A stretch of 64,000 nt of DNA from Escherichia coli (GTDB lineage Bacteria > Pseudomonadota > Gammaproteobacteria > Enterobacterales > Enterobacteriaceae). Below are positions 7,588 through 40,050 of the stretch, piece after piece; position 1 is the stretch's first letter; every line of letters starts with the position of its first letter. The stretch lies in the NCBI RefSeq assembly GCF_011045215.1, contig NZ_CP049201.1; one strand, given 5' to 3'. The notes beneath the pieces are model-generated. The model was not told the origin of the DNA. It searched no databases and saw only the letters and a program-made list of their open reading frames with translations. Made by a program: the position numbers and the translations under genes.

Positions 7588-7663
7588 GGCCCTTTAGCTC
7601 AGTGGTTAGAGCAGGCGACTCATAATCGCTTAGTCGCTGGTTCAAGTCCAGCAGGGGCCACCA
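7588..7663 (+). tRNA. ileY: tRNA-Ile (anticodon CAU, lysidine-type; ileY/ileX-like)
   Basis: 76-nt sequence GGCCCTTTAGCTCAGTGGTTAGAGCAGGCGACTCATAATCGC...GGGGCCACCA with CAU in the anticodon loop and encoded CCA end; recognised as the E. coli minor tRNA-Ile. Confidence 0.93.
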
Positions 7664-8414: not shown

Positions 8415-9764
8415 ATGTTAATTAATAAAAGCAACGGATTTAACGCTAGCGCAGTTTTGGGTAGTGGAAGTTATAATGAAAATAAATCTTCTAAACACAT
8501 GGAGCTACTAGCTCATAGTATTGTAAAATTAATTTGTAAGGAAGCTGCATCAGAGACGTATCGCGGTGCTCTTGAAACTTTACAAAAAATGATGTCTGAA
8601 TGTAAATATAAAGAAGGCAACGCCTTTGTCATTATGGGAGCTGGAGGACAATTAAAACGTATTAAATATGATGTTGATGAAAATAAATTAAAAATATTCA
8701 ACATATACTTTGATAATAATTACGAGGTAGTTACTGATGGTGAGCCTGACGTAGTATTTTTAAGCAAGCAGGAGTGGGAAAATCTTCTCATTAAATTAAA
8801 ACCGGAGATTAAAGAAAATGTGTTTTCTGAAAATAACAAATTATCGAGAGAAAATAATTTTGATCAGTATGTTCAATCCGCTAAAAGAAATGAACAGACC
8901 CTTTTCGATAATATAAGAAAAAGTGATTTTCATGTTGGTTCACTTAAGCCAGGTAGTATGAATAATGTTATTTTAGAAATGCCACCAAATGTCTGTATGG
9001 AATCACGTAATTCATATGAAAACCAAATAGATGAGATTTCATCTTTGTCAGAGTCAAAGGAACACCCCATAGATATTCAAGAAAAAACAGATGCGTTTGT
9101 GAATGAGTTCAGGGGGATATTATTTGATCAAAATGGAAGGTCTTCAGAGTTTCTACTTAATTTTTATGAATGTTGCTATGTGTTTTTACCAAGAGCGCAG
9201 CCTCAGGATAAAATCGAAAGCTATAATTCAGCACTGCAAGCTTTTTCCATCTTTTGTTCATCTACGTTGACACATAATAATATAGGCTTTGATTTCAAAT
9301 TATTTCCAGAAGTCAAGCTGTCTGGAGAACATCTTGAAACGGTATTCAAATACAAAAATGGCGATGATGTCCGGGAGATAGCCAAAATTAACATTACTCT
9401 CCAAAAAGAAGAGGGTGGCTTATATAATCTACGTGGATTGGATTTTAAGGGATGCTTCTTTTCTGGACAGAACTTCAGTAACTATGATATTCAATATGTG
9501 AACTGGGGAACGTCATTGTTTGATGTTGATACTCCGTGTATTTTTAATACGCCTGCTAACCATGAGAGTTATGAAAAATCATTAAAACCTGTAAGCGAAA
9601 ACGGTTTAAATGGAGTCTTATCTGATCGTAATAAAAAAATAAAAATGATCACGGGTGTGGCGCCATTCGATGATATTTTATTTATGGATGATGACTTTGA
9701 TGATAACTCCCCTGAGGATGCTCCCATTGAGAATAGTCCTGTTGTGAATAGTCCCCTTGTATGA
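8415..9764 (+). CDS. Pentapeptide-repeat-containing protein (ypjB/ypjC-region gene; EspX-like effector family possible)
   Basis: 449-aa AT-rich ORF; C-terminal stretch LRGLDFKGCFFSGQNFSNYDIQYVNWGTSLFDVD fits a pentapeptide-repeat pattern; acidic C-terminal tail. Confidence 0.55.
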   Translation: MLINKSNGFNASAVLGSGSYNENKSSKHMELLAHSIVKLICKEAASETYRGALETLQKMMSECKYKEGNAFVIMGAGGQLKRIKYDVDENKLKIFNIYFDNNYEVVTDGEPDVVFLSKQEWENLLIKLKPEIKENVFSENNKLSRENNFDQYVQSAKRNEQTLFDNIRKSDFHVGSLKPGSMNNVILEMPPNVCMESRNSYENQIDEISSLSESKEHPIDIQEKTDAFVNEFRGILFDQNGRSSEFLLNFYECCYVFLPRAQPQDKIESYNSALQAFSIFCSSTLTHNNIGFDFKLFPEVKLSGEHLETVFKYKNGDDVREIAKINITLQKEEGGLYNLRGLDFKGCFFSGQNFSNYDIQYVNWGTSLFDVDTPCIFNTPANHESYEKSLKPVSENGLNGVLSDRNKKIKMITGVAPFDDILFMDDDFDDNSPEDAPIENSPVVNSPLV

Positions 9765-10059
9765 AGTTCTAAAAGTAGTTTTCAATGATAAATAAATGGC
9801 TATTTTTACGAAGAGATAATAACGTAGATTGAAACAATATGTATTATTGATTGAGTAAATGGGATTATTCTTCACACTACATCCATTTTAGTGTCACTAC
9901 CAAAGAAAAAGGGGCTACGTTTTCATGTAACCCCTTGATTTATTTGGTGGGCTAGCAGTGACTGAATTGGTGCTGTAATTGGTTGAAATATTTCATCTAA
10001 TGTCTGGTTCAACTTTCCTTAGCTGCCTGAAAGTTTTTTGATCTTACCCAGCAATAACA

Positions 10060-10390
10060 GCGTTACGGTGCACCACGCCTGACTGAAGAACTGCGTGCTC
10101 AGGGTTACCACTTCAACGTAAAACCGTGGCAGGAGGTCCGGACTGAAAAAACTGCTCAGGACATCATCGGCAGGGAACGCACTGCTAGTCTGTAAACTGA
10201 ACCGACTGGGGCGCAGTATGTGGCATCTTGTCGTGCTGTTGGAGGAGCTGTGCGAACGTGGTATTAACTTTCGTGCTCTGGCCCAATCTATATTTGCCCA
10301 ACAATGGGGGGGCGAATGCTGTAAAAGTAAAACAATCTGCGATCTCAAAGTTATTGTGTGATTTTTATGTGAGCAGAAGATATTCATCAG
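10060..10390 (+). pseudogene. Degenerate serine DNA-invertase fragment (pinH-like) fused to a short unidentified upstream piece
   Basis: Frameshifted translation gives ...[52 protein letters not shown]..., matching the central region of Gin/Pin invertases ([30 protein letters not shown]); lacks the catalytic N-terminus and C-terminal HTH. Confidence 0.45.
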
Positions 10391-10699
10391 AAACGATTAT
10401 GTAAATCATTTTATTTTGCCAACGGCCTCATTGTCGAAAGAAAAGAATACGCCCGTGTTTCCTGAATAGATTGACTTTTTTATCCAACCACACTTCAGCG
10501 CACTGCGTTTAAAAAATGCCTCATTCTTATGCGGAATATCATCATTTCATCATGATGTCTTTGATGAGCGGTGAACACAATACACTTGCGCTGTCTCTTC
10601 AGGATGAATCCCCTGGTCTGGTGCCTGTGGGCTGATGTTGCAGCAAAGCTAAGGTCGCTTAAACGCTACTCAGTATTCACTTTTCAGAGGATGAAATTT

Positions 10700-13600
10700 A
10701 TGAACAGGACCAGTCCCTATTATTTTCGCCGCTCAGTACTTTCCTTATTGATATCTGCCTTAATATATGCCCAGCCTGGAGAGGCTGCTTTCACATCAAT
10801 CGTTACTGGTATCGTAAATGGTGAAACTGTTGATGGTGATCAAATAGTAGATGAACGTGGTACAACTAATGATATTCATATCATTAATCACGGCCGCCAG
10901 ACTGTAATTGGTGGGATGTCTAATGGAAGTATTATTGAAGTTGGTGGACAACAAGATGTAGCAAGCCATAATGATTATCAGGGGCAAGCTAATAATACAA
11001 TCCTTCATGGGGGTGCACAGGTAATTTATAATGGCGGGAATTCTACCGGTACGATAATCGAGAGTGGTCATCAGCAAGTTTATAACGGTGGTACCAGCAA
11101 TGGCACGATAATCGAGAGTGGCAATCAGTACGTTTATAAAGATGGTACCAGCAATGGCACGATAATTAAGAATGGTAATTCAGTCGTCGAAGGAGGGAGG
11201 GCGAACGGGACTGTCATCGATGGTGGTAAACAAACAGTAACAACTCAGGGATATGTTGACGGTACGACGATAAATAAGTCCGGTTATCAGGACATCATGC
11301 AAGGAAGTCAGGCAAAGAATACGACAATAGATGGGGGGCGGCAGTATGTGGACTCGAGTTTTGTAGAAACCACCATCATCAAAAATGGGGGCGATCAAAG
11401 AGCATATAAGAGCCATGCGCTGAACACTACGATAGATGGAGGTCGACAGTATATTGATTCAAGTACTGCACAAATAACCACCATTAAAAATGGAGGAACG
11501 CAACAATTAATTGCCAGCCAGGCTATGATCACCTCGATTGAAGGGGGAATGCAGACGCTGGAAAGTTCGTCAATGGCGTACAATACCACGATCTATTCTG
11601 GCGGGAAGCAAATTGTTGATAACACCAGCACCTCGGATGTTATTGAAGTTTATTCCGGTGGCGTGCTTGATGTTAGTGGTGGTACGGCAACAAATGTTAC
11701 CCAGCACGATGGTGCAATTTTAAAAACAAACACTAACGGTACGACGGTGAGCGGTACGAATAGTGAAGGTGCATTCTCCATCCACAATCACGTGGCAGAC
11801 AATGTGTTGCTGGAAAACGGTGGTCATTTAGACATAAACGCATATGGTTCGGCAAACAAGACGATTATTAAAGATAAAGGAACAATGTCAGTTTTAACCA
11901 ATGCTAAAGCTGATGCGACCCGAATAGATAATGGCGGGGTTATGGATGTTGCCGGAAACGCGACCAATACCATAATTAATGGTGGTACACAGAATATTAA
12001 TAATCATGGTATTGCCACGGGCACTAATATCAACAGTGGAACGCAAAATATCAAGAGCGGCGGGAAAGCTGACACGACAAATATATCCTCCGGGAGCCGG
12101 CAGATTGTTGAGAAAGATGGTACGGCAACTGGCAGCAATATTAGCGCTGGAGGCTCGCTGATTGTCTATACCGGCGGTATTGCACATGGGGTTAACCAGG
12201 AGACGGGCAGTGCTTTAGTTGCCAACACGGGTGCAGGGACTGATATCGAAGGATACAACAAGCTCTCTCACTTCACTATTACCGGAGGGGAGGCTAATTA
12301 TGTTGTGCTGGAAAATACCGGCGAACTGACGGTAGTGGCTAAAACCTCGGCGAAAAATACTACCATTGATGCTGGCGGTAAGCTGATTGTCCAGAAGGAG
12401 GCTAAAACAGATAGCACCAGACTTAATAATGGCGGCGTTCTGGAGGTTCAGGACGGTGGTGAGGCTAAGCATGTTGAGCAACAATCCGGCGGCGCATTAA
12501 TTGCTTCCACGACCTCCGGAACACTTATCGAAGGAACCAACAGTTATGGTGATGCTTTCTACATCAGGAATTCAGAAGCTAAAAATGTAGTGCTGGAAAA
12601 CGCTGGCTCATTAACCGTCGTCACTGGTTCCCGGGCAGTTGACACGATTATTAATGCCAACGGCAAAATGGATGTTTATGGAAAAGATGTTGGCACTGTA
12701 CTCAATAGTGCTGGCACCCAAACAATATATGCCAGTGCCACTTCTGATAAAGCAAATATCAAAGGTGGCAAGCAAACGGTATATGGTTTAGCCACTGAAG
12801 CAAATATCGAAAGTGGTGAACAAATTGTTGATGGTGGGTCAACAGAGAAAACACACATCAATGGTGGCACGCAAACCGTTCAGAATTATGGTAAGGCAAT
12901 CAATACCGATATCGTCTCTGGCCTACAACAAATTATGGCAAACGGGACAGCGGAAGGTTCCATTATTAATGGGGGTTCACAGGTAGTTAATGAGGGCGGT
13001 CTGGCTGAAAACTCGGTGCTTAATGACGGCGGCACACTCGATGTGCGGGAGAAAGGCAGCGCAACGGGGATACAGCAGAGTAGCCAGGGCGCTTTGGTTG
13101 CAACCACCAGGGCGACGCGGGTCACAGGAACACGCGCGGATGGCGTCGCGTTCAGCATCGAGCAGGGTGCGGCGAACAATATCCTGCTGGCAAATGGCTG
13201 CGTGTTAACCGTGGAGTCAGACACCACTTCCGCCAAAACACAGGTCAATACGGGCGGGCAGGAGATCGTCAAAACAAAAGCCACTGCGACAGGCACGACG
13301 CTCACCGGCGGCGAACAAATCGTCGAGGGTGTGGCGAATGAGACAACGATTAACGACGGTGGAATACAAACAGTTTCGGCTAACGGAGAGGCAATAAAAA
13401 CAACGATCAATGAAGGCGGTACGCTGACAGTTAACGATAATGGCAAAGCAACAGATATCGTCCAGAACAGCGGTGCCGCTCTCCAGACGAGCACGGCTAA
13501 CGGTATTGAAATCAGCGGTACTCACCAGTACGGCACTTTTTCCATTTCCGGCAATTTAGCGACCAATGCGTTGCTGGAAAATGGCGGTAATTTATTGGTA

Positions 13601-15433
13601 TTAGCAGGCACCGAAGCTCGCGACTCCACGGTTGGCAAGGGTGGTGCAATGCAAAACCTGGGTCAGGACTCCGCCACAAAGGTTAACTCTGGCGGGCAAT
13701 ATACCCTTGGGCGGTCAAAAGATGAGTTTCAGCCTCTGGCCCGGGCAGAAGATCTCCAGGTCGCTGGCGGGACGGCAATCGTCTACGCAGGTACGCTGGC
13801 GGATGCATCGGTCAGTGGCGCGACAGGAAGCCTGTCGTTAATGACGCCACGGGATAATGTTACGCCAGTTAAACTCGAAGGGGCGGTCCGGATTACCGAT
13901 AGCGCGACATTAACTCTGGGAAATGGCGTCGATACAACGCTTGCCGACCTGACGGCTGCCAGCCGGGGCAGTGTCTGGCTTAACAGCAATAATTCCTGTG
14001 CAGGTACCAGCAACTGCGAATATAGAGTAAACAGTTTGCTACTCAACGACGGTGATGTTTATTTATCAGCACAAACAGCAGCGCCTGCCACAACTAACGG
14101 TATCTACAATACGCTGACAACCAATGAACTTTCCGGTAGCGGTAATTTCTACCTGCATACCAACGTTGCAGGCTCCCGGGGCGATCAACTGGTCGTCAAC
14201 AACAACGCCACTGGTAATTTTAAAATCTTTGTTCAGGATACCGGCGTCAGCCCACAGTCTGACGATGCGATGACGCTGGTGAAAACAGGGGGAGGGGATG
14301 CTTCGTTTACGCTGGGCAATACCGGCGGTTTCGTTGATCTTGGGACCTATGAGTATGTCCTGAAAAGTGACGGCAACAGCAACTGGAACCTGACCAATGA
14401 TGTCAAACCCAACCCGGATCCCAACCCAAATCCGAAGCCAGATCCAAAACCAGACCCAAAACCGGATCCGAAACCAGACCCGACTCCCGATCCAACGCCG
14501 ACACCCGTTCCGGAGAAACGCATCACGCCTTCTACGGCAGCCGTACTCAATATGGCTGCAACATTACCGTTGGTATTTGATGCTGAGCTAAACAGTATTC
14601 GCGAGCGGTTGAACATAATGAAAGCGAGTCCACACAACAATAATGTCTGGGGGGCGACGTATAACACCCGTAATAATGTCACCACCGATGCGGGTGCCGG
14701 GTTTGAGCAGACGCTGACCGGAATGACAGTGGGGATCGACAGCCGTAATGATATTCCTGAAGGAATTGCCACGCTGGGCGCTTTTATGGGTTATTCCCAT
14801 TCACATATCGGTTTTGATCGCGGAGGACATGGCAGTGTGGGCAGTTATTCTCTGGGCGGCTATGCCAGTTGGGAACATGAAAGTGGTTTCTATCTGGACG
14901 GTGTCGTGAAGCTGAACCGTTTTGAAAGTAACGTAGCCGGTAAAATGAGCAGCGGTGGAGCCGCCAATGGCAGTTACCACAGCAACGGGCTGGGCGGTCA
15001 CATTGAAACCGGGATGCGATTTACCGATGGTAACTGGAACCTGACGCCGTATGCATCGTTAACGGGGTTCACCGCTGATAACCCCGAATATCATTTATCC
15101 AATGGCATGAAATCGAAATCAGTCGATACCCGCAGTATATATCGTGAACTGGGGGCAACGCTGAGTTACAACATGCGTCTGGGGAACGGTATGGAAGTTG
15201 AGCCGTGGCTGAAGGCGGCTGTGCGCAAAGAATTTGTCGATGATAACCGGGTGAAGGTGAATAATGACGGTAATTTCGTCAATGATTTGTCGGGCAGACG
15301 TGGAATATACCAGGCAGGTATTAAAGCCTCATTCAGCAGTACGTTAAGCGGGCATCTCGGGGTGGGGTATAGCAACGGTGCCGGTGTGGAATCCCCGTGG
15401 AACGCGGTGGCTGGTGTGAACTGGTCGTTCTGA
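10700..15433 (+). CDS. ypjA: AIDA-I-type adhesin-like autotransporter (ypjA-like)
   Basis: ORF 10571-15433; probable start ATG 10700 (MNRTSPYYFRRSVLSLLISALIYAQPGEA signal peptide); passenger built of ~19-aa imperfect repeats (NGTIIESG.QQVYNGG...), PNPDPNPNPKPDPKPDP linker, C-terminal beta-barrel ending ...AGVNWSF. Confidence 0.85.
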   Translation: MNRTSPYYFRRSVLSLLISALIYAQPGEAAFTSIVTGIVNGETVDGDQIVDERGTTNDIHIINHGRQTVIGGMSNGSIIEVGGQQDVASHNDYQGQANNTILHGGAQVIYNGGNSTGTIIESGHQQVYNGGTSNGTIIESGNQYVYKDGTSNGTIIKNGNSVVEGGRANGTVIDGGKQTVTTQGYVDGTTINKSGYQDIMQGSQAKNTTIDGGRQYVDSSFVETTIIKNGGDQRAYKSHALNTTIDGGRQYIDSSTAQITTIKNGGTQQLIASQAMITSIEGGMQTLESSSMAYNTTIYSGGKQIVDNTSTSDVIEVYSGGVLDVSGGTATNVTQHDGAILKTNTNGTTVSGTNSEGAFSIHNHVADNVLLENGGHLDINAYGSANKTIIKDKGTMSVLTNAKADATRIDNGGVMDVAGNATNTIINGGTQNINNHGIATGTNINSGTQNIKSGGKADTTNISSGSRQIVEKDGTATGSNISAGGSLIVYTGGIAHGVNQETGSALVANTGAGTDIEGYNKLSHFTITGGEANYVVLENTGELTVVAKTSAKNTTIDAGGKLIVQKEAKTDSTRLNNGGVLEVQDGGEAKHVEQQSGGALIASTTSGTLIEGTNSYGDAFYIRNSEAKNVVLENAGSLTVVTGSRAVDTIINANGKMDVYGKDVGTVLNSAGTQTIYASATSDKANIKGGKQTVYGLATEANIESGEQIVDGGSTEKTHINGGTQTVQNYGKAINTDIVSGLQQIMANGTAEGSIINGGSQVVNEGGLAENSVLNDGGTLDVREKGSATGIQQSSQGALVATTRATRVTGTRADGVAFSIEQGAANNILLANGCVLTVESDTTSAKTQVNTGGQEIVKTKATATGTTLTGGEQIVEGVANETTINDGGIQTVSANGEAIKTTINEGGTLTVNDNGKATDIVQNSGAALQTSTANGIEISGTHQYGTFSISGNLATNALLENGGNLLVLAGTEARDSTVGKGGAMQNLGQDSATKVNSGGQYTLGRSKDEFQPLARAEDLQVAGGTAIVYAGTLADASVSGATGSLSLMTPRDNVTPVKLEGAVRITDSATLTLGNGVDTTLADLTAASRGSVWLNSNNSCAGTSNCEYRVNSLLLNDGDVYLSAQTAAPATTNGIYNTLTTNELSGSGNFYLHTNVAGSRGDQLVVNNNATGNFKIFVQDTGVSPQSDDAMTLVKTGGGDASFTLGNTGGFVDLGTYEYVLKSDGNSNWNLTNDVKPNPDPNPNPKPDPKPDPKPDPKPDPTPDPTPTPVPEKRITPSTAAVLNMAATLPLVFDAELNSIRERLNIMKASPHNNNVWGATYNTRNNVTTDAGAGFEQTLTGMTVGIDSRNDIPEGIATLGAFMGYSHSHIGFDRGGHGSVGSYSLGGYASWEHESGFYLDGVVKLNRFESNVAGKMSSGGAANGSYHSNGLGGHIETGMRFTDGNWNLTPYASLTGFTADNPEYHLSNGMKSKSVDTRSIYRELGATLSYNMRLGNGMEVEPWLKAAVRKEFVDDNRVKVNNDGNFVNDLSGRRGIYQAGIKASFSSTLSGHLGVGYSNGAGVESPWNAVAGVNWSF

Positions 15434-15443
15434 CCATCAACGA

Positions 15444-15466
15444 AAAAGCCCACATCTGTGGGCTTT
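15444..15466 (+). terminator. Hairpin after ypjA (AAAAAGCCCACATCTGTGGGCTTT)
   Basis: Perfect stem GCCCACA/TGTGGGC immediately 3' of the ypjA stop codon; weak U-tract. Confidence 0.5.
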
Positions 15467-16111
15467 CATGTTACCAGGAGCCGCGGCTCCTTTGCGTATC
15501 CTTTTATGTCTCCTCACCGTCTGGTCGGTGTCCTGCTGAGACTTCTAACTTCCTGTTTTTGTTGGTGTTGTTTTTACACCTTCCAATCATGATTGGTGCT
15601 GGCGTCCCTGTGCTTTTAATTATAGTGTATTGATATTTAATATTTTTGTTTAAATTAATTTCGTTATGGGTTCCAAAAAGGAACCATAAAGTAGAACCAC
15701 AGAACCTCGCATGGTTCCAACATGCCTAGCGACTTCAAAATAACACGCTCTATGGCAAACTAAATGTAAGTGTGGCTGGATATTTAGCGTCTGATTACTG
15801 AGAGGGTCAATAAAAACTGCTCTATCTCAAATACTGTAGTGGCCCATAAACTTGTCCGCTTGAGTCGATGGTGTACCTCGTCCGTTCAGGCCCGGAGTGG
15901 CTAATTAGCAGAGTATTCATGTCTGCTATGAGCGAGGATCGGACGTAAAACAACTGTAAAAAACTATTTAACTCAGGCAGAAATGTCAAGATTCAGTGAA
16001 AATGTCTAATCACTGGTTCGTTAGAAATGCCCATATGTTGAAAAGGCTGCTGCAAAAAAGTCTCTCGCAGCGGCCTCTTTAATATAACGTCATTGTGTGC
16101 ATCATCTTTAA

Positions 16112-17464
16112 TTATGGGTTTAACTCAAACTGTTCCCCGTTTATTAATTTTCGCAATAAGTCAAGTGCCTCAGATGAGTATTTTCCGACACCACTTTTCC
16201 CAGATTTAATGAAAACATGATAATTGTTGTCTGATGCTTTAATGTTGAAGTCGGTTAGTTTTCTTAATTTTTCGAATTCTTGATTAACATAGTGCCACGA
16301 TCCCATGTCGAGAATCCTTGCCAGATCAGACATTGTATATGGGAAACTAGCATTTAGTGCCTGCCCATTATTGAGTTCAGCGATACCATACATTTTTGCT
16401 AATGCATCATCATGCTCTGCAATATTGCGGAACATCTCAAAATCGTATGGAAGTTCTTGTTTAACAAGGGATTCTGATGCGAATGTGTACGTTCTGGCTA
16501 GAAATGCACGCACAAGTTTTGGATTAACGCTAATTTCCGGTGTATTAGATGATAACGCATCAAAAATCCAACCAAAATTATTTGCGTATATCACCTTGAT
16601 TCGAACGCTTTTATTCTCACCAACACCGATTAGCAATTCCTTTTGATGAGAACCAGTGGCCTCGCAGTCCTTACTGAAGGAGACAAGATAAATATTTGGA
16701 ATCAATGCATTATTGGGAGCGATGATTTCATCTATATCAGAGAGAATTGCCTTTATGTTTTCATCATTGATACTGTACCCAAAGAAAAACAAGGGGTGTT
16801 CAGCAAAATATGTTAGCAACTTAGCACTGATATATTTCTTACGTTTATAGAAATCAACATAATCTTCATTTGTAATAACAATACTTTCAACTTCATGACT
16901 GCTACCATGAATTTTCATGATTTCGCCATAAGATGAATAATTCACTTTAACAACGTTATGACCAACTATTGCCTGATAATTGTCAAATATTTTTTCTAAT
17001 GTGTCGTCATAATTTGTTGTGATTATTGCATGAGGTTTTACTTTCCTTAATTTCTGAACTTCCTCTGTATATTCCATGTTCGAGAAATCAACGGAGTTTG
17101 ATAATTCATTCAGAATGGATGCAATTTCATGCTTAATATAAATATCTTTTGGAGTCGTTCCTTCAAAGTATGTCTCTGGATAGCGATCCTTGCCATCATC
17201 CCAAGCCCATTCAGCATAGAAGTCACAAAAATCGCTAGCAATCAAAGGTTTGTTATCACCCTTTGTTTGGCTGTAGTAACCATAAGGGCGTTTGATCAAG
17301 GGGCATATTTCCGCTAGTTGCTTTAATAGACCTTCCCAGTCAGGCGCTTTTATATATCGTTGTGAAATACCTGCACCCATGAATAAAATGGGTTGGACTT
17401 GTAAGTTTTCAAGGCAAGATTTAACATCTTCGATTATTTCTTCTTGATATTCCGTAAAGTCCAT
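16112..17464 (-). CDS. Stand-alone SIR2-family (ThsA-type SIR2_2-like) protein with unknown C-terminal domain; candidate NAD+-depleting anti-phage effector
   Basis: 450-aa AT-rich ORF; sirtuin-like motifs ILFMGAGIS (GAGxS), ITTNYD, KIHGSSHE (HG) and FFFGYSINDENI line up with ThsA SIR2-domain motifs as I recall them; no partner gene within ~0.7-0.9 kb. Confidence 0.7.
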   Translation of the reverse strand: MDFTEYQEEIIEDVKSCLENLQVQPILFMGAGISQRYIKAPDWEGLLKQLAEICPLIKRPYGYYSQTKGDNKPLIASDFCDFYAEWAWDDGKDRYPETYFEGTTPKDIYIKHEIASILNELSNSVDFSNMEYTEEVQKLRKVKPHAIITTNYDDTLEKIFDNYQAIVGHNVVKVNYSSYGEIMKIHGSSHEVESIVITNEDYVDFYKRKKYISAKLLTYFAEHPLFFFGYSINDENIKAILSDIDEIIAPNNALIPNIYLVSFSKDCEATGSHQKELLIGVGENKSVRIKVIYANNFGWIFDALSSNTPEISVNPKLVRAFLARTYTFASESLVKQELPYDFEMFRNIAEHDDALAKMYGIAELNNGQALNASFPYTMSDLARILDMGSWHYVNQEFEKLRKLTDFNIKASDNNYHVFIKSGKSGVGKYSSEALDLLRKLINGEQFELNP

Positions 17465-18352
17465 ATAGTTACCTCAGGGATAGGTGATTGCTATGTGATG
17501 CACCGCGAAACGGTTCGGGGCTTTGTGACACCCAAACTTTACCCCGGTTTCCCAGCGTTTCCTTTGTATATAATATCATTGAAGTTAATTGCGTTTCTCA
17601 GAAATCTTCTTAGGATGTGATTGCAATAACGGCAACACAGCGCACACATCGCGGCTGATCAGTGAGTATGAAGTGGTTTACTGAATTTGGCCGCCTGAAT
17701 CGAGAGACAAAATGTCCGCTCCTGGCACTAAGCAGAAGTTCCCGAACAACGTAAGCTGGCATATGCCCTCGTTCCTCCGTGGGGACTATCGATCTATTTG
17801 CCGGTTGTGTTTAAGCAATATCGCCAGCGGCGTGAGCTCTCAGTGCATTCAATCAAGCTCACAAATCACACAGTCTTTACTTTTTTTAGATTCCCTAATG
17901 GTTTCGCGTCATAGCCTCAGCCAGATAAACCTGAGCTGCTTTAGGGGTATATGCCTTTCCGAGCATAAAGGATACTGTTTCTATGAAAACTGATCGCGAG
18001 AGCACGATTAGGAGATCAGAACCTGATTTGACATTGATACTGGCTATCAGCGATGGGCAGTTCTCGAATACATCTGACAATCATTTACCTCATTAAGTTT
18101 TATTTCCAGAAGTGCCGTGATCCAGCACGAGTGCTGATAATCAATATCACTTGGGTAATGATTGACAAGTTCACTAAACAACGAGCAGATATTTTAAAAT
18201 TGCCTGCAGCTTCCACATCACCAGGCAGAGGCGTCAGACCCTTAGCACCATACGATTCATAGAGTAATTCCCAATATAGTTGATGCTGAATTTCTTTGTT
18301 CATGTTGAGGCAGTATATTGAAACAATGAGAATGAATCACACATATAAGCTC

Positions 18353-19357
18353 TCACAATCTTCCGCCGTTTTTGACTGTTGCAGATATACTTTTAGCAGG
18401 TTTTAAATGCCTGGAGATTTCTTTCTGTTCTCGACGGATTTTGTATGAATTAATTTCTTCATAATCCTTGTGTTTATTTATTTTTGATAAATCAACCAAG
18501 AGATTATTTCTTATCATCCACTTTACAATTCGCTTGTTGATATCTTTATAGAGAGGGCCGCCTTTATATTTATAGAAGTGAATATCATGAATTTCACTGA
18601 TGAAATCAAGTATGGATAAGATTTCTTTATAATCACCAATGTAACTGTTAATGGTGAAATGGTCTTTATTAAGTTCTATTTTGAATCCATGTTCAGAAAG
18701 GTAATACAAGAAAAAGGCTGAGTCGAGATCACAAAAATCTACATGCAGCGTTCTTCTGTCAAATTTATCAATATGCGAGAGAATGATATCATGTAATTCA
18801 TAATCATATACATTTTCAATAAATCCTTTCCCTGAATGATCAATTTGATTGACATTGCATCCAGCATCTATTGCTACGGATAAAACTTCCGGGGAAAGGG
18901 GCATGAAGAGAATATTCATTCCTTTTTTATCGATGTGATTTATATCACAACCAGCATTAATTAATTCTGTCAATCCTTCAGCATTCCTGTAATGTTCAAA
19001 AATGCATGTGTAGCCATTAGTATCCGTATGCGAGGTGTCTAAACCCAGTTCAATCAGTTTCTTCAGTATTTCTGGATTTTTTTGATGAAAGAGCGCATTT
19101 TGCCCATGTCCGTTGATATGGTGTATATTAATTCCATAACTGAGCAGGCAATCCATGGCTTCCAGGGTTCTGCAGGCAAAAATGGCATTGTTGCCGTTAC
19201 TGTTAACAGCATTGATGTCATAGCCTATTTTTAAAGCTTTCTTTATATCATCAGGTGATCTTGCATTGAAGAATGATTCAGAAATGGCAAGGTCTAATGC
19301 CTTTTCTAATAATCCCTTTTGTAATAAGGATATGACTAATTCCATAAACACCCCCAT
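18353..19357 (-). CDS. Ankyrin-repeat protein (paralog 1)
   Basis: 334-aa ORF with repeated G.DIN..D..G.N.LF blocks (~33-aa periodicity) and a C-terminal region shared with ORF 31629-32573 (..VKWMIRNNL../..IKWFIRNDI..). Confidence 0.7.
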   Translation of the reverse strand: MGVFMELVISLLQKGLLEKALDLAISESFFNARSPDDIKKALKIGYDINAVNSNGNNAIFACRTLEAMDCLLSYGINIHHINGHGQNALFHQKNPEILKKLIELGLDTSHTDTNGYTCIFEHYRNAEGLTELINAGCDINHIDKKGMNILFMPLSPEVLSVAIDAGCNVNQIDHSGKGFIENVYDYELHDIILSHIDKFDRRTLHVDFCDLDSAFFLYYLSEHGFKIELNKDHFTINSYIGDYKEILSILDFISEIHDIHFYKYKGGPLYKDINKRIVKWMIRNNLLVDLSKINKHKDYEEINSYKIRREQKEISRHLKPAKSISATVKNGGRL

Positions 19358-23439: not shown

Positions 23440-24151
23440 GGACCCGACTACATGATTTACCCGTTAACTTAATACGGCTCACGCCGGAACCCCTTCGGAA
23501 AAATCCTTTCTGCTTCAGCGAGTGAGTGCTGTGGGCACTCAGCGGCGCTGCAAGAGGGATTAAACGTTGGGTTTTCATCTGACGGGTAAAAATAATCTAC
23601 ATATATCTGTCGTCGGGGGCGTGAGCCGGTGCGTAGCACTCTCTCAGAAAAATTCCTGAAGGGGTTTTATCTGAAATCTGGAAACTACCTGGCTTTTGAA
23701 AAAAGGAAGTGGTAATGCAATCGATCGGACTCAACATTGCAACAGCGTAAGCTGTTTCCAGTATTAAAAGAATAAATAGTTGTCATTTTAAAATAAAATA
23801 TTTTCAATTTTGTATTGATTTAAATTTTAAAGCTGATAGTACTTAATTATAAAAACAAAAAAGGAGAGGGTTATGAGTAATATTTTTGTTTCTTCTCAGG
23901 AAGAAAAGTTTATATTTGTTGTTGATAAATATATAACACAGCATCGCGACAGTGTTAATAACAATATTTTTTACAGAAAACTTTATGTGCTTTTCGCTGG
24001 ATACCATCTGAAGTATTTTTATTCACGGGCGCAATATCGCAATTCGTGTTATTGCGTATTCCGCTCTATTCGATCACGGATTGGCATCGAAGTTCGATCA
24101 GCGATTCGCATCCATTCGATCAACCGGGAACTTAACTTTTTCTACCGCTTT

Positions 24152-24907
24152 TTAACTCGTTTTTTCGCTGCTTTCCACTGTCGGGGGATTTTTCCTCAGG
24201 GACTCTCCCTGAAGGACCACTCTGTGTGAGTTATGTACCAGTCTGTCCAGGATGGCATCTGCTGTTGTTGGGTTCTCCATCAGACCATGCCATTTATCTA
24301 CCGGGAACTGGCTTACCACTATCGTGCTGCTTTGTCCGTAACGATCCTCTGTGATCTCCAGAAGGTCATTACACTGGGCGTTACTTAACTGTTCCAGCCC
24401 CAGATCGTCCAGGATTAGAACCTGTATTTTTTGCAACTGTTTCAGATATTTCAGCCAACTGCCATCAACACGTCCCTGAGCCAACTGTTCCAGTAATCGC
24501 CCGGTTCTACAGTACCGGACGCTGTATTTCTGTCGACATGCCTGTTCGCCCAGCGCATTGGCTATCCAGCTCTTACCGCATCCTGTCGGACCGGTTATCA
24601 GTAGGTTTTTCCTGTGGATTATGTAGTGGCCGTTCAGCAGTTCCCTCATCTGTTCAGCCCGCAGACCTCTTGAGGCCGGATAACGCAGCCCTTCCGGTGT
24701 TGCCTGATATTTCAGGCAGGCATTTTTTCTCAACCGTGCCACACGACTGTTTTCTCTGCTCAGAAGCTCGTCATCAACCAGCAGTGTCAGCCTTTCCTCG
24801 AACGACAGTTCGTCGTAAGTCTGAGGCGTTTCCCGTTGCCGTATCAGGCTCCCGGCCATCGCCGGGAGTTTCAGTTGGGTCAGTTTGTTTAACAGATTAT
24901 CACTCAT
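24152..24907 (-). CDS. istB: IS21-family helper ATPase IstB
   Basis: ORF 24152-25150; likely start MSDNLLNKL (24907); Walker A GPTGCGKS and typical IstB layout; overlaps the end of istA. Confidence 0.85.
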   Translation of the reverse strand: MSDNLLNKLTQLKLPAMAGSLIRQRETPQTYDELSFEERLTLLVDDELLSRENSRVARLRKNACLKYQATPEGLRYPASRGLRAEQMRELLNGHYIIHRKNLLITGPTGCGKSWIANALGEQACRQKYSVRYCRTGRLLEQLAQGRVDGSWLKYLKQLQKIQVLILDDLGLEQLSNAQCNDLLEITEDRYGQSSTIVVSQFPVDKWHGLMENPTTADAILDRLVHNSHRVVLQGESLRKNPPTVESSEKTS

Positions 24908-24923
24908 ACGGTTGTTCCTTCTG

Positions 24924-26489
24924 TCAGTGGTAGTAGCCAGGACCACGCAGGTTTTCATGCTCTGAAGCATATGCCGGATGTTGTTCGCCCTGGCGGGATA
25001 ACGGAAGCTCAACGTTATCCCGATGATGACGCAGCAGATTGTCGATAAAGCGTCTGTCCGGGGCGTTATAGTGCAGGGCAACGTAACAGGCCTTTTCCAG
25101 CCGTTCCGGGCCGTATTTTTTCTGAAGTGCCAGCAGACCCAGGACTGCACGGTAAGCCAGCTCCGGATGGGGTTTGGCTTTCAGCATGGATTCAACCACC
25201 CGGCCTGTGGACGGACCTGTACGGTTTCCCTGCTCGATAAGGCGTTCCGGTGTCCATGTCCCATGCCGCCGGTGGCGTTCTGGCATGTGAAGCGGATTGG
25301 TTGTGTGTTTATATTCATGTGTGCTGCGCGGATGTTGCGCCACACACTGCCCCTTGTGCCAGAGCTGTACCACCGACTGCCCCACCTTCAGTGACAGACG
25401 CTGACCGACCAGTTCGTGTGGAACGGAGTACCAGTGACGGGCATATTCAACGTGGTAGTCAGGGCCAACCTTCACGGCTTTGTATTCCGTGTATTCATAA
25501 GGCTCCAGAGGCAGCGGAGAGAGTGCTGGTGCATCCAGCATGCGGAAGCGTTCTGCGCGGGTTTGATTACCGTATCCCTTCATTGGTCGGTTATTCATGT
25601 CCGTCAGCAACTCCCGAAGGCGTGCATTCAGCGCCCTGAGCGTGTGGAAGGTTTCATTACGGATGCGGGCAAGAAGCCATCGCTCGACGATGAGGACGCC
25701 GTTTTCTGCTTTTGGTTTATCTTTAGGTTTGCGCGGGCGGGCCGGGATAATAACCGTGCCATAGTGCTCAGCCAGCGCCTGATAACTGTCGTTGATGACA
25801 GGCTCATAGCGATCGGCTTTTTTCACTGCGCTTCTGAGGTTATCGGGGATGAGCAGCTTCGGTACGCCGCCCAGGAAGGTCAGGCAACGGCTGTGGGCAT
25901 TTAACCATGACATCATGTCCTGACCTTCGCACGCTTCAACATAGGTATAGTTGGACGCCCCCATTACAGCCACGAAGATTGCCACGCGGCGTATCTCTCC
26001 GGTGTCCGGATTAATAACAGGGACCGTAGGACCACAGAAGTCGATAAAGAGCTTTTCGCCAGCACGATGCTCCTGTCGCATGGAGAGGCGTCGCGTTTTT
26101 TTCCACTTCCGGTAGCAACGGCAGAAGTGTGAGTATCCCATCGCTTTGTCACCCGCCTGTGCCTTGTATTCCATCCACAACAGTTGGCGCGTCACGCCAG
26201 GTTTTCTCATTTCCGTATCGAAGTACAGCATGTCAGGCATAACAAGCTCTGACGCAGAGGTGTCTTTGGGCGGGAAAATGAGTTTCTCCAGCGTGTCATG
26301 GGATATATCAGCAGGTAATGGCCATGACAGAGAAGAGGCTTTGAAGCGGGCAAGAACCTCAAAAACGGTTGAGGCGCTGATGTGTAACGTCAGTCCGATA
26401 CAACGGTTAGTCAGCTTCTTATCGAACTTGAGCTGAAGGATCTTAAAACAAGTTTCCATAGTGCTCCTGGATTTTCTCTTTTTGGACAT
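24924..26489 (-). CDS. istA: IS21-family transposase IstA
   Basis: ORF 24924-26591; likely start MSKKRKS (26489); N-terminal HTH followed by integrase-like catalytic core; paired with istB. Confidence 0.8.
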   Translation of the reverse strand: MSKKRKSRSTMETCFKILQLKFDKKLTNRCIGLTLHISASTVFEVLARFKASSLSWPLPADISHDTLEKLIFPPKDTSASELVMPDMLYFDTEMRKPGVTRQLLWMEYKAQAGDKAMGYSHFCRCYRKWKKTRRLSMRQEHRAGEKLFIDFCGPTVPVINPDTGEIRRVAIFVAVMGASNYTYVEACEGQDMMSWLNAHSRCLTFLGGVPKLLIPDNLRSAVKKADRYEPVINDSYQALAEHYGTVIIPARPRKPKDKPKAENGVLIVERWLLARIRNETFHTLRALNARLRELLTDMNNRPMKGYGNQTRAERFRMLDAPALSPLPLEPYEYTEYKAVKVGPDYHVEYARHWYSVPHELVGQRLSLKVGQSVVQLWHKGQCVAQHPRSTHEYKHTTNPLHMPERHRRHGTWTPERLIEQGNRTGPSTGRVVESMLKAKPHPELAYRAVLGLLALQKKYGPERLEKACYVALHYNAPDRRFIDNLLRHHRDNVELPLSRQGEQHPAYASEHENLRGPGYYH

Positions 26490-26625
26490 TGACGTCTCCA
26501 CTGGTTTAAACACGGCAATGGAGACTGTGGTGAAAAGAGTTAATTCCCGGAGTGACTGGCGAATTCCAATCAATGATCGGAAGTATGCCAAATCGTGATC
26601 GATTGTGATGCCAACATATCCTTAC

Positions 26626-28100
26626 CCATAAATCCGAGTGATGTTATTCTGTTGATAAATTAACCATAATTTAGAGGAACTATGGAAAACTGGGTTATTA
26701 AGGAGCTGGAATCTCTGAATGTTGGTGATATCAGGCTCGAAAAGCGAATAAAGCACGTTCTCAGTGTGCTTAGCCGTTCACCAAAGGAAAGTATTCCCGT
26801 ATCCTGCCGTACCTGGAGTGAGACAAAAGCTGCTTATCGTTGCTTTTCCAGTGATAAAATTTCAGCCGATAAAATCATGGCTCCCCATAAGAAAAATATC
26901 ATCGAAAGGACTAAACAGTTTAAACGGGCTCTGGTTTTACAGGATACGACTGAACTAAATTATTCTGGTCAAAAAAAGAAACAGGGCGTCGGTCCCAGAC
27001 GACATGAAAATGAGCGAGATTTGTTTATTCACCCTCAATTGGTTATAAGTGATTCAGGTATTTGCTTAGGGGTTTATGATGATTATCAATGGTTCAGAAA
27101 AGAACTCAAAACTCAGAAACAAAGTCGTAAAGAAATAACTAATGATTCACTTCACAGGAAACATATCAGTGAGAAAGAAACAGGACGGTGGATAGAAGGA
27201 TATAAAAAAGCAACAGAACTGGCTAGGTCCTGTCCTGATACCCAGATAATTTCTGTTTCAGACCGTGAAGGTGATATTTACGACCTCTTTGAGAGTGCAG
27301 AAAATGAAAGTGGGATAAAGGCTGACTGGCTCGTAAGAATGAAGAGCATTAACCGGGCTATACTGAATTCATCAGGAAAAAGAGACTCATTACTCCTGAA
27401 TGAAAAAATGATGCAGATTTTGCCACAGCAGATAATTGAGTTTACCCTTCCGGAAGGACGAGGACAACCTTCCCGCAAAGTCCAGCAGGAGCTACGCTTA
27501 GCAAGGTTGACGCTACATCCACCCACCGGTCGAAGAGGAAAGTTACGTTGTTCTCCGGTAACGGTAACTGTATTACTTGCAAAGGAAATAAATGCTCCAG
27601 AAAGTGTCCAGCCATTAGTATGGTGGCTAATGAGTAGTGTACCTCCAGAAAAGCTGACGGAACCCGCACAGCTTATTCAATGGTATTTATTACGCTGGCA
27701 GATTGAAGTTTTCTTTAAGGTATTAAAAAGCGGATGTCAGGTTGAGAAATTACAACTTGAGACATTTGAACGCACAAGGAACTGTCTGGCCTTATACCTT
27801 ATAATCTCATGGAGAATACTTTATCTTAGCTCATTGTATAAAATGGTTCCGGAGGAACCCTGTGATTTAATTTTCGAAAAGAAAGAATATGAGTATCTCT
27901 GGATATTGGTAGAGAATACGCCTCCACCTGAAAACATACCGAATATAAGAACGGCGGTTTTAATGCTTGCAAGATTAGGAGGATATCTGGCAAGAAAAAA
28001 TGATTCGCCTCCAGGCCCTAAGACTATATGGTCAGGATTAACACAATTAATGCTGTCAATTAATGCCATAGAAATAGCCCAGAAAACTTGTGGGTAAGGG
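26626..28100 (+). mobile_element. IS4-family insertion sequence nested in the IS21-family left end
   Basis: Single transposase ORF flanked by imperfect terminal inverted repeats (CCTTACCCATAA... / ...TTGTGGGTAAGG); both flanks carry IS21-type repeat motifs; boundaries approximate. Confidence 0.6.
26682..28097 (+). CDS. IS4-family DDE transposase
   Basis: 471-aa ORF containing the IS4 Y-x2-R-x3-E-x6-K signature (YLLRWQIEVFFKVLK). Confidence 0.85.
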   Translation: MENWVIKELESLNVGDIRLEKRIKHVLSVLSRSPKESIPVSCRTWSETKAAYRCFSSDKISADKIMAPHKKNIIERTKQFKRALVLQDTTELNYSGQKKKQGVGPRRHENERDLFIHPQLVISDSGICLGVYDDYQWFRKELKTQKQSRKEITNDSLHRKHISEKETGRWIEGYKKATELARSCPDTQIISVSDREGDIYDLFESAENESGIKADWLVRMKSINRAILNSSGKRDSLLLNEKMMQILPQQIIEFTLPEGRGQPSRKVQQELRLARLTLHPPTGRRGKLRCSPVTVTVLLAKEINAPESVQPLVWWLMSSVPPEKLTEPAQLIQWYLLRWQIEVFFKVLKSGCQVEKLQLETFERTRNCLALYLIISWRILYLSSLYKMVPEEPCDLIFEKKEYEYLWILVENTPPPENIPNIRTAVLMLARLGGYLARKNDSPPGPKTIWSGLTQLMLSINAIEIAQKTCG

Positions 28101-28195
28101 TATGTGATGCCAAACTGTGATCGGAGATGGATGCCAAATCATGATCGATTCGAATGCCAAACTGCGATCGATTCAGATGCCATTTTGCAGTTATC
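28100..28195. repeat. Displaced IS21-family subterminal repeat block (3-4 copies of ATGCCAAA..TGATCGATT)
   Basis: Read directly: GTGATGCCAAACTGTGATCGG, GGATGCCAAATCATGATCGATT, CGAATGCCAAACTGCGATCGATT, CAGATGCCA. Confidence 0.6.
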
Positions 28196-31628: not shown

Positions 31629-32573
31629 TTACAATCTACGTTTTACTGGCATTAAAGAGATTGTTTGTTTCATAATTTCGCTAAGTTTCTTTTTCTCATG
31701 TTCTGCTATATATTTACAAATCTCATCATGTCGAATATGCTGTTCCAGTTGTTTTTTATCCATTTTGATGTCATTGCGGATAAACCATTTAATGGTTTCA
31801 ATGTCCCCGCGTAAATCATAACCTCGCAGTACAATATGGCGAAAATGTGTGTTGCTGATATCTGTCTTCTTCTTTAGTTCACTGAAGAAAGAGCTCATTT
31901 CATTTTCATTGGCACTTAGATAAACCTGGCAGTTATCAGAGATAGTAAAGTTAAGGTTTTTCTTCTGAAGCAAATCCATTATCTGCAGACTTTCGCTGTT
32001 GAGGTAGTTGAAAATTACTGGACTGCTATCCTTCATACTAATATGACGAATGAGCATTTTGGCTTTGAAATCGCCTAATGAATAGCAAATTTCAAAAATA
32101 CCGTGACCCTGGTTATCTCTGTGGTTTATATCGCAACCGGCCTGTACCATCAAATCAAAGATAGAGTGATTTTTTACGTAAAAAAGTATTGTTCTTCCGC
32201 ATTTATCCACATTGTTGACATTAATTCCAGCATTGATCAGGGTTTTGCAACAGGATATATTATCAGCTAACGAGCATAAACAGGTTTGGCCGAGACCATT
32301 TTTATGGTGTATATCTACGCCGGAATCAATCAATTTTTTCAGTATGTGAGGATTTCGCTGGTTAAACAAAACATTGTGACCATAGTTGTCAGCATGGTTA
32401 AAATCTATTCCTGCTTTAACCAGAGTGTCAATCATTCTTGGGTTTTTACAGTAAAACAGTATATTTCTTCCAAACGAATCCAGTGTATTAATATCGGAGC
32501 CTGCATTAATGCAAGCCTGAATGTCTTTTGGAGTTTTACAAGAGAGTAATGTATTTATTGCGTTGTTATTCAT
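31629..32573 (-). CDS. Ankyrin-repeat protein (paralog 2)
   Basis: 314-aa ORF with ankyrin-like repeats (GSDINTLDSFGRNILFY..., GIDFNHADNYGHNVLF...) and the shared C-terminal region; 16 bp downstream of ORF 32589-33029. Confidence 0.7.
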   Translation of the reverse strand: MNNNAINTLLSCKTPKDIQACINAGSDINTLDSFGRNILFYCKNPRMIDTLVKAGIDFNHADNYGHNVLFNQRNPHILKKLIDSGVDIHHKNGLGQTCLCSLADNISCCKTLINAGINVNNVDKCGRTILFYVKNHSIFDLMVQAGCDINHRDNQGHGIFEICYSLGDFKAKMLIRHISMKDSSPVIFNYLNSESLQIMDLLQKKNLNFTISDNCQVYLSANENEMSSFFSELKKKTDISNTHFRHIVLRGYDLRGDIETIKWFIRNDIKMDKKQLEQHIRHDEICKYIAEHEKKKLSEIMKQTISLMPVKRRL

Positions 32574-38600: not shown

Positions 38601-38840
38601 ATCAGGTGTGCTGATCTGCATCACCTGTTTCAGGGCTTCCTCACACTTCTGTTCACTAAGGTGCGGATTCAGGCGTTGTAGAGCAATACGCACCTTATCT
38701 TCAAGGATAACCTGCTGATAGCTACGTAACGGATTGATTCCACTGGGTTCAATGTCCGGGCCGTAAACATACTCATAGCCCAGCCCTTGCAGGTGCTCAA
38801 TTGCCATTACTTCAATATCGGATTCGGTCATCTTTGCCAT
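35601..38840 (-). pseudogene. hsdR: Type I restriction enzyme R subunit HsdR interrupted by an in-frame amber codon
   Basis: ORFs 37701-38840 (N-terminal, helicase motif I GSGKS) and 35601-37646 (C-terminal) are in the same frame, separated by a single TAG at 37701-37703 (...[33 protein letters not shown]...). Confidence 0.8.
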
Positions 38841-38898: not shown

Positions 38899-40050
38899 TT
38901 ATGCTACTGATGCGATTGCTTCTTCTGCATACTGAACCCGTACTTCACCGCTCATCAGTTTGGGAAGTAAGGTATCGCGGAGTTTTTCTAAGCTATCAAT
39001 TTGTTTTGAGTTGTTAATAAGTTTACTTTCAAATGAATCTAATAACTCATTAATTATACGTAGGGAAGCTTCTGTTGGCAGATTAACATTGAACTTCTTA
39101 AGATGATCCAAGTTAACTCGTTGTCTGCCACTTGAACCTTCCATACAGCTTTCTGCATATTCTTTGAAGTCCGGGTTTCGGCACATGATATATGAGATAA
39201 AAGGATGGATTTCTTTTTTAGGACGCATAACTATGAATTCGGTAGAACCCCATCCAGTTTCATTGTCGTCTAAAAAATCAATATAGGCCGCTTTCCCATT
39301 TTCTAAACATGGGGTAATTCTGGCTAGCAAGGTATCTCGTTTAGTAAATTTAGTTCCTGAAGAAAATGGACGTCTGTAATATCCATTTGCACGAAAATTA
39401 ACAGTGCTCAGTCCAGCCATGTCCAAATAAGTAGCGTCTTGGCTTTTAATTAAAGTTCGCTTTGGATTAAAGTCAATTATCTGATCTATACTAACTGATA
39501 CACCAGTGCTATCTAAAATAAACCACTGCCTAAACAGGGTTTCAGCCATAGATTCTAGTGTTTTATTCTGGCAATGAAGCAGGTCTATTTTGTCTTTAAG
39601 AGAGGACAAAATAGAGGCGATGGCTTTTTGTTCAGATTCATCAATTGGTAAGTAAAGAGGAATCAAATTTAGCGATGCTTTATTTAATTTTGGTTGAGCA
39701 GCACCTGTTAAATAAGGAGATAGATCAAGTTGTGAAAAATATTGGATTATCAATGCCGTTAAATGGGGCTTTTTAGCTTTAAGGACATGAGCGTGATTAT
39801 TAACCCAAAATTTTCCAGTAGCTTCAAATGCTATAGGTGTTTTTCTGGAATTTAAGTTTTCTCCATCTTCAGAAATAAGGATGTAGCTGCCATCAAAAAT
39901 ATAATTGTCGATATAATCGACAATTCCTGACGCTCCATAATATGGAAAATTTCCTTTCTTATGGGCTCGTTCCATAGCACTCAAAGGAATTCTTTGTGCG
40001 TTGCAAAAATCTGCTAATTCAGTTATACAAAAATTTCTCCACCTACTCAT
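38899..40050 (-). CDS. hsdS: Type I R-M specificity subunit HsdS
   Basis: 383-aa ORF between hsdR and hsdM, start overlapping the hsdM stop; two-TRD architecture with conserved central and C-terminal helical regions. Confidence 0.75.

Follow-up and report, generated by a model that had tools for sequence, protein, structure and literature searches.

Which function could a lone gene for a SIR2-family protein serve on a genomic island of Escherichia coli? The gene in question lies within 64,000 nucleotides of contig NZ_CP049201.1, here called the window, and codes for a protein with 100 % identity to WP_023317204.1, which is also present in E. coli C and carries the RefSeq product name 'SIR2 family NAD-dependent protein deacylase'. 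SIR2 NADases recur as effectors of bacterial immunity, and all systems known so far depend on a large sensor domain or on partner proteins. The original prediction had assigned the protein to the ThsA type and proposed an undescribed single-gene NAD+-depleting anti-phage module, or a sensor-effector that reads signals made by other systems. Sequence and structure comparisons suggest that the gene probably provides a one-protein anti-phage defence. The single-gene NAD+-depleting module was the best reading, because the protein has a defence-type SIR2_2 domain, stands alone, is borne by islands or other mobile genetic elements, and about 44 % of the loci scanned for defence genes had one directly beside the homologue. 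To this extent the proposal stood, on the domain, the stand-alone status, the island and the neighbours, with the chemistry taken over from homologous enzymes. The complete proposal is that of a self-contained, mobile one-protein module against phages (or mobile elements), which would deplete NAD+ and sense nucleic acid by a C-terminal winged helix; we regard it as evenly balanced between right and wrong.

The N-terminal part of the protein was identified as a SIR2 domain by several comparisons. The sole Pfam domain was SIR2_2 (PF13289), at residues 146-262 with an E-value of 1.5e-23. The sirtuin motifs quoted in the original prediction were located in the translation as G30-A31-G32-I33-S34, T149-T150-N151-Y152-D153 and H186-G187. 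In a conservation alignment of 80 family sequences, reaching down to about 30 % identity, G30, H186, G187 and D201 were invariant and N151 was present in 79 sequences; this supports the expected SIR2_2 protein of the defence type, in which the catalytic Asn and His are kept. An AlphaFold2 (AF2) model of the full protein, built from 40 homologues, had predicted local distance difference test (pLDDT) values that lay mostly at 83-95 as far as residue ~170 and varied more widely (59-92) from there to residue 305. The SIR2 fold reached to about residue 305 in this model and left about 145 residues for the C-terminal part, which had been taken for a half of about 200 residues. Nearest among solved structures by sequence were the SIR2 domain of DSR2 (the best, E 1.8e-7), a streptococcal ThsA-like protein, KomC and ThsA. 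A Foldseek search against the Protein Data Bank (PDB) retrieved KomC, DSR2, BcThsA and EcThsA, with E-values of 2e-9 to 7e-8 among the 50 matches listed. In the alignment with DSR2, N151 fell on N133 and H186 on H171, the position of the mutation in the deposited H171A structures.

The C-terminal part was modelled as residues 308-450 from an alignment of 60 sequences. In this model, the final ~73 residues (378-450) had block-mean pLDDT values of 86-96 and formed a winged helix to which one more helix is added at the C-terminus. Similar to the model in fold are many MerR-family regulators, GlnR/TnrA, excisionases and small terminases. Outside the active site, conservation is highest in the wing, with N413-x-Y415-H416 and Y429-S430 present in 75-78 of the 80 sequences; the motif K428-Y429-S430 is nearly invariant, and the positions 409, 414, 428 and 438 are kept basic. 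The median pI across the family is 8.7 for the winged-helix domain and 4.9 for the SIR2 domain. With the C-terminus as query, Pfam gave nothing, and a profile search of the PDB gave only matches to ScpB, PadR and TraM, none of them significant. The idea of a widely shared sensor domain was rejected, as the searches returned the SIR2 family itself: phmmer with residues 257-450 against 1.84 billion representatives yielded 157 proteins at E <= 0.001, and nearly all of the 150 matches listed were SIR2 proteins of about 450 amino acids that have the module at the corresponding C-terminal position, or were fragments of them; the matches in AFDB50 were confined to this family, labelled 'SIR2 family' or uncharacterised. 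The C-terminal module is thus exclusive to the 450-residue SIR2 family. A sequence relationship with the winged helices of MerR, excisionase or RacA type was not detectable. Unlike MerR, the protein has no coiled coil or effector domain, and its winged helix is fused to an enzyme instead of being part of a free regulator.

The search for relatives gave 746 family matches. Nearly all of the best 120 were about 450 amino acids long, with 96-100 % coverage and 43-55 % identity; the exceptions were some ten near-identical copies that are truncated or chimeric. The full 450-residue architecture was kept at 36-55 % identity in Proteobacteria, Firmicutes, Planctomycetota, Bacteroidota and archaea. 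When one genome was scanned for each species, relatives appeared in at least 147 species. Seventy-nine loci of Gamma-, Beta- and Alphaproteobacteria, Firmicutes, Planctomycetota, Bacteroidota and the archaea Methanococcoides and Natrinema were examined by calling open reading frames (ORFs) within ±8 kb of the homologue and clustering them. The gene proved to stand alone, as had been claimed: the commonest neighbour family occurred in at most 6 of the 79 loci, the recurring families were ABC ATPases, integrases, dehydrogenases and LepA, and TIR, LmuB/C, HerA or pAgo genes did not recur in these loci. Pfam, the ORFs of the window and the annotated loci likewise held no SLOG/STALD, TIR, HerA or Argonaute in the protein or adjoining it. 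An upstream ORF on the same strand, 35-190 bp away in many loci, was rejected as partner, since these ORFs are mutually unrelated by BLASTP and phmmer. Rejected as well was the ankyrin-repeat gene at 18353-19357, whose linkage to the SIR2 gene is confined to E. coli and Kluyvera; the cassette common to Citrobacter freundii, Dryocola, Erwinia and Pantoea lacks it, as do distant loci. In Pseudomonas viridiflava (locus L034), another SIR2-family ORF of 377 amino acids (9363-10493; PADLOC 'SIR2' models, E 2e-11) begins about 30 bp past the end of the tblastn match to the homologue (9332) on the same strand, possibly a tandem pair of sirtuins.

An association with defence genes was found when the two flanking ORFs of 25 loci were compared with the PADLOC models. 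A directly flanking ORF with a strong, mostly full-length defence match was present in 11 of these loci, and two further matches were ambiguous. The matches comprised AriB, dGTPase, AbiEi, DruE, PD-T7-3, a type I REase, a type IIG RM, ShosA, PD-Lambda-3_B, PDC-M19A and PDC-M65A. Ten core genes of the window, scanned as control, had no specific defence match, only a generic RecN/mad3 one; neighbour matches to the PADLOC models mad3 and mad8 were discounted, because RecN had matched mad3 in the control. Homologues were accompanied by integrase, primase and NERD genes on Vibrio plasmids, by an adjacent AbiJ-NTD3 ATPase in Acinetobacter and by an adjacent RelA/SpoT gene in Paenibacillus, and 37 IMG/VR contigs carried homologues. 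Together with the patchy and horizontally transferred distribution, the defence neighbours associate the family with defence islands.

The mobility of the gene is evident on three scales: its island, its occurrence in E. coli and its transfer among genera. The SIR2 gene has a GC content of 36.1 %, compared with 49.9 % in the core genes beyond ssrA, so the AT-richness noted before was confirmed. The tmRNA gene (ssrA) is located at 48204-48566, and an integrase, a recombinase, two ParB genes, a type I restriction-modification system and a relaxase lie between ssrA and the SIR2 gene; the island at ssrA was rightly recognised. In near-identical E. coli loci, according to the RefSeq annotation, the same island carries three ankyrin-repeat genes and has the SIR2 gene as its last gene, at the distal end. 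This allele was found in 42 of 5426 complete E. coli genomes, a second allele at another site in 221 of the 5426; one or the other, each at an island site of its own, is present in less than 5 % of the genomes. E. coli C, Citrobacter sp. R56 and Kluyvera cryocrescens have a protein of 100 % identity, Citrobacter freundii and Dryocola one of 99 %, and Pantoea and Candidatus Erwinia dacicola one of 94-95 %. The gene is an intact, horizontally mobile single gene.

The unit of transfer was delimited by blastn (Table 1). The minimal cassette of about 1.7 kb comprises the gene with about 130 bp of 3' and about 200 bp of 5' flank, and the closest pairs share 15921-17734, that is, about 270 bp upstream and about 190 bp downstream of the gene. 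The gene travels as a self-sufficient one-gene cassette. A hairpin resembling an intrinsic terminator lies inside the co-transferred 3' flank and was more stable (-21.7 kcal/mol) than all of 200 shuffled sequences (0/200 as stable, z = -5.4) in RNA folding. As described in the original prediction, the flanks of the gene hold short ORFs only, over 678 bp (15434-16111) and 888 bp (17465-18352); an Rfam search of both flanks gave no match. These noncoding flanks are for the most part a portion of the surrounding island, not of the module. They end at the ypjA/ehaD autotransporter gene (stop at 15433) on one side and at the ankyrin-repeat gene mentioned above on the other.

Table 1. Features of the SIR2 locus; positions refer to the window
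Feature	Position	Strand	Description
Complete SIR2 gene	16112..17464	(-)	450 aa; ATG start; stop codon inside the interval
SIR2 (SIR2_2) catalytic domain	16550..17464	(-)	residues 1-305; NAD-binding GxG loop G30, G32; catalytic Asn151 (TTNYD) and His186 (IHGS)
Helical linker	16352..16549	(-)	residues 306-371; low model confidence; shared in part with PDC-S25 profiles
C-terminal winged-helix domain	16115..16351	(-)	residues 372-450; predicted topology H-b-H-H-b-b-H; near-invariant wing motifs
Minimal cassette	15984..17664	(-)	blastn against loci L010, L014, L015, L016, L018 and L019; common to genera and both E. coli alleles
Promoter-like region and leader	17465..17734	(-)	travels with the gene; predicted from sequence
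Intrinsic-terminator-like hairpin	16041..16079	(-)	followed by UUUUC; begins 33 nt past the stop codon

The second E. coli allele (12001-13353 of locus L010, strain EC42405, and 220 other complete genomes) has 80 % protein and 74 % DNA identity to the allele of the window. It is flanked by an ISNCY transposase and by hipBA, and an autotransporter pseudogene of the ECSE_1600 family lies near. With ypjA/ehaD at the one and this pseudogene near the other, both E. coli alleles adjoin autotransporter genes. An ankyrin-repeat gene lies at 1878-3833 of L010, about 8 kb from the second allele and thus at another chromosomal site. Four homologues of odd length were considered as natural domain swaps of the C-terminus and rejected, being unlike natural variants: in P0066 and P0041 the same unrelated segment replaces a part of the protein, and in P0018 and P0012 it is the N- or C-terminus that is unrelated. 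These copies are probably the result of gene disruption; an ISNCY transposase adjoins the second allele.

In the mechanism proposed, the SIR2 domain would be the effector and, once activated, would hydrolyse NAD+ with Asn151 and His186. The loss of NAD+ would starve the infected cell and abort phage replication, as in ThsA, DSR1/2, SIR2-HerA and KomC. The MerR/excisionase-like winged helix would serve as sensor or regulatory module; in the likeliest version it would bind nucleic acid, such as incoming phage DNA or an intermediate of its replication or packaging, and binding would lead to oligomerisation or relieve an autoinhibition of the SIR2 domain. We thus infer NADase activity, an abortive outcome, a DNA trigger and an activation by assembly. 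The parts of this mechanism differ in strength. A role in defence is likely, judging from neighbourhood, mobility and patchiness. NAD+ depletion as effector chemistry is rather probable, given the homology to NAD+-depleting enzymes and the conserved Asn and His. The winged helix as sensor of nucleic acid is a tentative assignment, with the trigger deduced from the fold match of a model. A stricter version, a minimal one-polypeptide NADase in which the winged helix recognises invading or phage-specific DNA and activates the SIR2 domain directly, or else directs an NAD+-dependent modification to DNA-bound targets, appears somewhat doubtful; in its direct DNA-sensing form it would dispense with a helicase, an Argonaute, a STAND protein and a second-messenger intermediary.

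Several observations weigh against the proposal of a nucleic-acid-sensing defence NADase. The winged helix of this E. coli protein has a net charge of 0 and a pI of 6.97. Residues 322-368 were poorly modelled by AF2, and the link between the domains is hard to read. The enrichment of defence neighbours comes from 25 loci, and 2 of the 11 matches are computational PADLOC candidates. No functional study of the 450-residue family was found in literature searches. The identical protein is carried by E. coli C, a classic laboratory host and notably phage-permissive, so any protection should be narrow, conditional or poorly expressed. The presence of the identical gene also makes the proposed function directly testable in E. 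coli C.

The noncoding DNA upstream of the gene bears on a first alternative, an unlikely one, that keeps the defence NADase and changes the task of the winged helix. This domain could bind its own promoter or leader, or chromosomal DNA, and keep the toxic enzyme repressed or tethered, with the trigger sensed elsewhere; the linker or a surface of the SIR2 domain could, for example, sense a phage protein. The putative promoter region is conserved together with the gene in Citrobacter, Dryocola, Erwinia, Pantoea and the second E. coli allele. It contains an extended -10-like element, TGaTATTAT, at 17578-17570, which is kept in 6 of 7 sequences and was not flagged by the promoter consensus scan, and a Shine-Dalgarno sequence GAGG at 17475-17472. 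A leader block of about 45 nt (AAGTTYGGGTGTCACA.A.CCCCGAACCG.TTCGCGG), within 17465-17570 (-), is kept even where the promoter differs, in Yersinia rohdei. A structured RNA in the 5' leader was considered and found unsupported: RNAalifold predicted a weak hairpin with little covariation, the single sequence folded no better than shuffled controls (z -0.74), and Rfam gave no match. Since the RNA fold is no better than that of the controls, the leader block might be a protein-binding site. The leader also contains a palindrome with the core ATTGCAAT at 17617-17630. Autoregulation is opposed by the palindrome being only partly conserved, even among close relatives. Furthermore, a co-evolving operator is disfavoured, because the wing is near-invariant from E. 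coli to archaea while the upstream regions are unrelated outside the Enterobacterales.

Equally improbable is a winged-helix fold that has been reused for recognition of a phage protein or of a small, nucleotide-type ligand. The domain comprises only about 80 residues and belongs to no recognisable pocket-forming family, and a conserved partner gene that could produce a signal is not present nearby. The suggestion in the original prediction of a protein that reads signals made by other systems was not sustained either: the C-terminus has a winged-helix fold of the DNA-binding type and is not a known second-messenger sensor.

Still less probable is a SIR2 enzyme that uses NAD+ to ADP-ribosylate or deacylate a DNA-bound target, protein or DNA, to which the winged helix would guide it. 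Some bacterial sirtuin-family enzymes are ADP-ribosyltransferases, and the fusion to a domain of the DNA-binding type would suit a targeted modifier. All nearest relatives in structure and sequence, however, are NAD+ hydrolases of defence systems, and the protein has neither a match to the classical sirtuin domain of Pfam (SIR2, PF02146) nor the CxxC zinc module typical of deacylases.

These two absences, of the PF02146 match and of the Cys4 zinc module, also separate the protein from the classical sirtuin deacylases of the CobB type. A housekeeping NAD-dependent protein deacylase is suggested by the RefSeq product name and is nevertheless very improbable. The name has to be seen as generic, because the 450-residue protein lacks a CxxC zinc motif, does not match the classical sirtuin domain and reaches the cut-off of none of the NCBIfam models; its domain is SIR2_2. 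In addition, the gene is patchy in E. coli, AT-rich, horizontally transferred and confined to two island sites, as described above. Least probable of all is an orphan Thoeris ThsA or DSR-type member with its partner or sensor elsewhere in the genome, for the matches of the PADLOC ThsA, LmuA and Dsr1 models that would favour it are limited to residues ~108-252 of the SIR2 core (E 2e-17 to 1e-7), no SLOG/STALD is present, the NCBIfam Dsr2 model scored 18.8 bits against a cut-off of 1400, the C-terminus is a winged helix, and none of the partner genes TIR, LmuB/C, HerA or pAgo recurs in the 79 loci. The results on domains, partners and distribution are contrary to a known ThsA or DSR member with a cognate partner and to a housekeeping deacetylase; the housekeeping deacylase and the orphan ThsA are effectively excluded.

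Further observations were made on the island and its borders. A tRNA gene at 7588-7663 (+) forms the other border of the hypervariable region; ARAGORN identified it as tRNA-Met with the anticodon CAT, and the counterpart in E. coli C is labelled tRNA-Ile in RefSeq, which we take to be of the lysidine-modified ileY type. The YpjA/EhaD autotransporter (10571-15433, +) was called mechanically as an ORF of 1620 amino acids from a GTG. Its true start is probably an internal ATG, because the RefSeq gene in E. coli C is shorter (4581 bp, 1526 amino acids). The hsdR gene of the island (35601-38840, -) has a premature stop at 37701-37703, which changes Gln380 to a stop codon and is a one-base difference from the intact gene for 1079 amino acids in strain 19AR1724. 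The genes hsdS and hsdM (38899-41594) appear intact. From the sequence, type I restriction by the island is probably inactive in this strain. Compared with the island of strain 19AR1724, which is otherwise 99 % identical, a GC-rich insertion of 4.1 kb is present at 24053-28189; it codes for an IS21-family transposase with the IstB helper and for an IS4-family transposase. Ankyrin-repeat proteins are encoded on the island at 18353-19357 and at 31629-32573 (-). Such proteins are unusual in E. coli and are not kept beside SIR2 homologues in other genera.

Among the known systems, the original prediction had pointed to Thoeris. The protein resembles ThsA in type and size of the N-terminal SIR2_2 domain, which is an NADase in ThsA, with about 16-17 % identity by structural alignment. 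The assignment to the ThsA type was not borne out: the PADLOC ThsA models reach the SIR2 core only (E 2e-17, residues 128-249). In ThsA, a C-terminal SLOG/STALD domain binds gcADPR from the adjacent TIR protein ThsB; the protein of this locus has the SIR2 domain and lacks both the C-terminal SLOG/STALD (or Macro) domain and the adjacent TIR partner. DSR2 of Bacillus subtilis is a SIR2 NADase defence made of a single protein, and its SIR2 fold and its catalytic Asn and His align with those of the protein of this locus. DSR2 has, however, about 1000 amino acids and binds the phage tail tube protein by a large sensor at its C-terminus, in contrast to 450 amino acids and a winged helix here; the full length of DSR1/DSR2 (about 1000-1200 amino acids with a large C-terminal sensor) is not attained, and the PADLOC Dsr2 model matched the SIR2 core only. 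The best structural match of the SIR2 domain was KomC of the Kongming system, a compact SIR2 NADase (TM 0.68, normalised to KomC). KomC has 264-278 amino acids and no C-terminal domain and, according to PDB titles, occurs as a KomB-KomC complex with dITP; these partners are absent here. Partner genes are also lacking for the other systems with SIR2 proteins, that is, HerA for SIR2-HerA (Nezha), a short pAgo for SPARSA, LmuB/LmuC for Lamassu-SIR2 and KomA/KomB for Kongming. Because a defining domain or partner of each of these systems is missing, the 450-residue family stands outside ThsA, DSR, SIR2-HerA, SPARSA, Lamassu and Kongming.

The closest known group is PDC-S25, a single-gene candidate obtained by 'guilt by embedding' (Payne et al., bioRxiv 10.1101/2024.01.29.577857) and one of 145 computational 'phage defence candidates' of that study. 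The only further mention of PDC-S25 found in the literature was a PADLOC call in an O157:H7 strain. The PDC-S25 model (PDLC04968) was the top PADLOC match of the protein, with an E-value of 4.1e-77, and aligned residues 10-338 to the profile positions 10-332 of 517; past residue ~338 no PADLOC model matched. The homologous core was also found with a full-length PDC-S25 protein (35 % identity over residues 12-248). Common to both families are the stand-alone, single-gene SIR2 protein, the core with the first part of the linker, and the association with defence and mobile elements. The C-terminus of about 150-180 residues in the profile was left unmatched. Two PDC-S25 proteins from viral contigs (547 and 519 amino acids) match the positions 10-515, whereas every member of the 450-residue family examined stops matching at about position 332-378, some of them extending through the linker to ~360-378. 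PDC-S25 proteins have about 520-550 amino acids; the 450-residue family ends instead in a winged helix of about 80 residues, and the two C-termini are unrelated (hhalign probability 0.1 %). Since the SIR2 cores are homologous and the C-termini unrelated, the 450-residue family is a sister of PDC-S25. The attribute 'undescribed' has therefore to be divided: the core groups with a computational candidate, and the C-terminus is family-specific.

The family is invisible to curated naming, which speaks of a deacylase, and E. coli defence inventories may mislabel or miss it, because the match to the candidate PDC-S25 is partial. If the proposed function is correct, 450 amino acids with a winged helix of this size would be among the simplest sensor-effector units, and the family could reveal how a small domain of the DNA-binding type gates NAD+ hydrolysis. 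Direct sensing of DNA, if it occurs, would be a new coupling of sensor and effector for bacterial sirtuins, spread from E. coli to archaea. In comparison with the known systems the effector logic is familiar; the newly described part is the family-specific winged-helix C-terminus on a defence-type SIR2 core.

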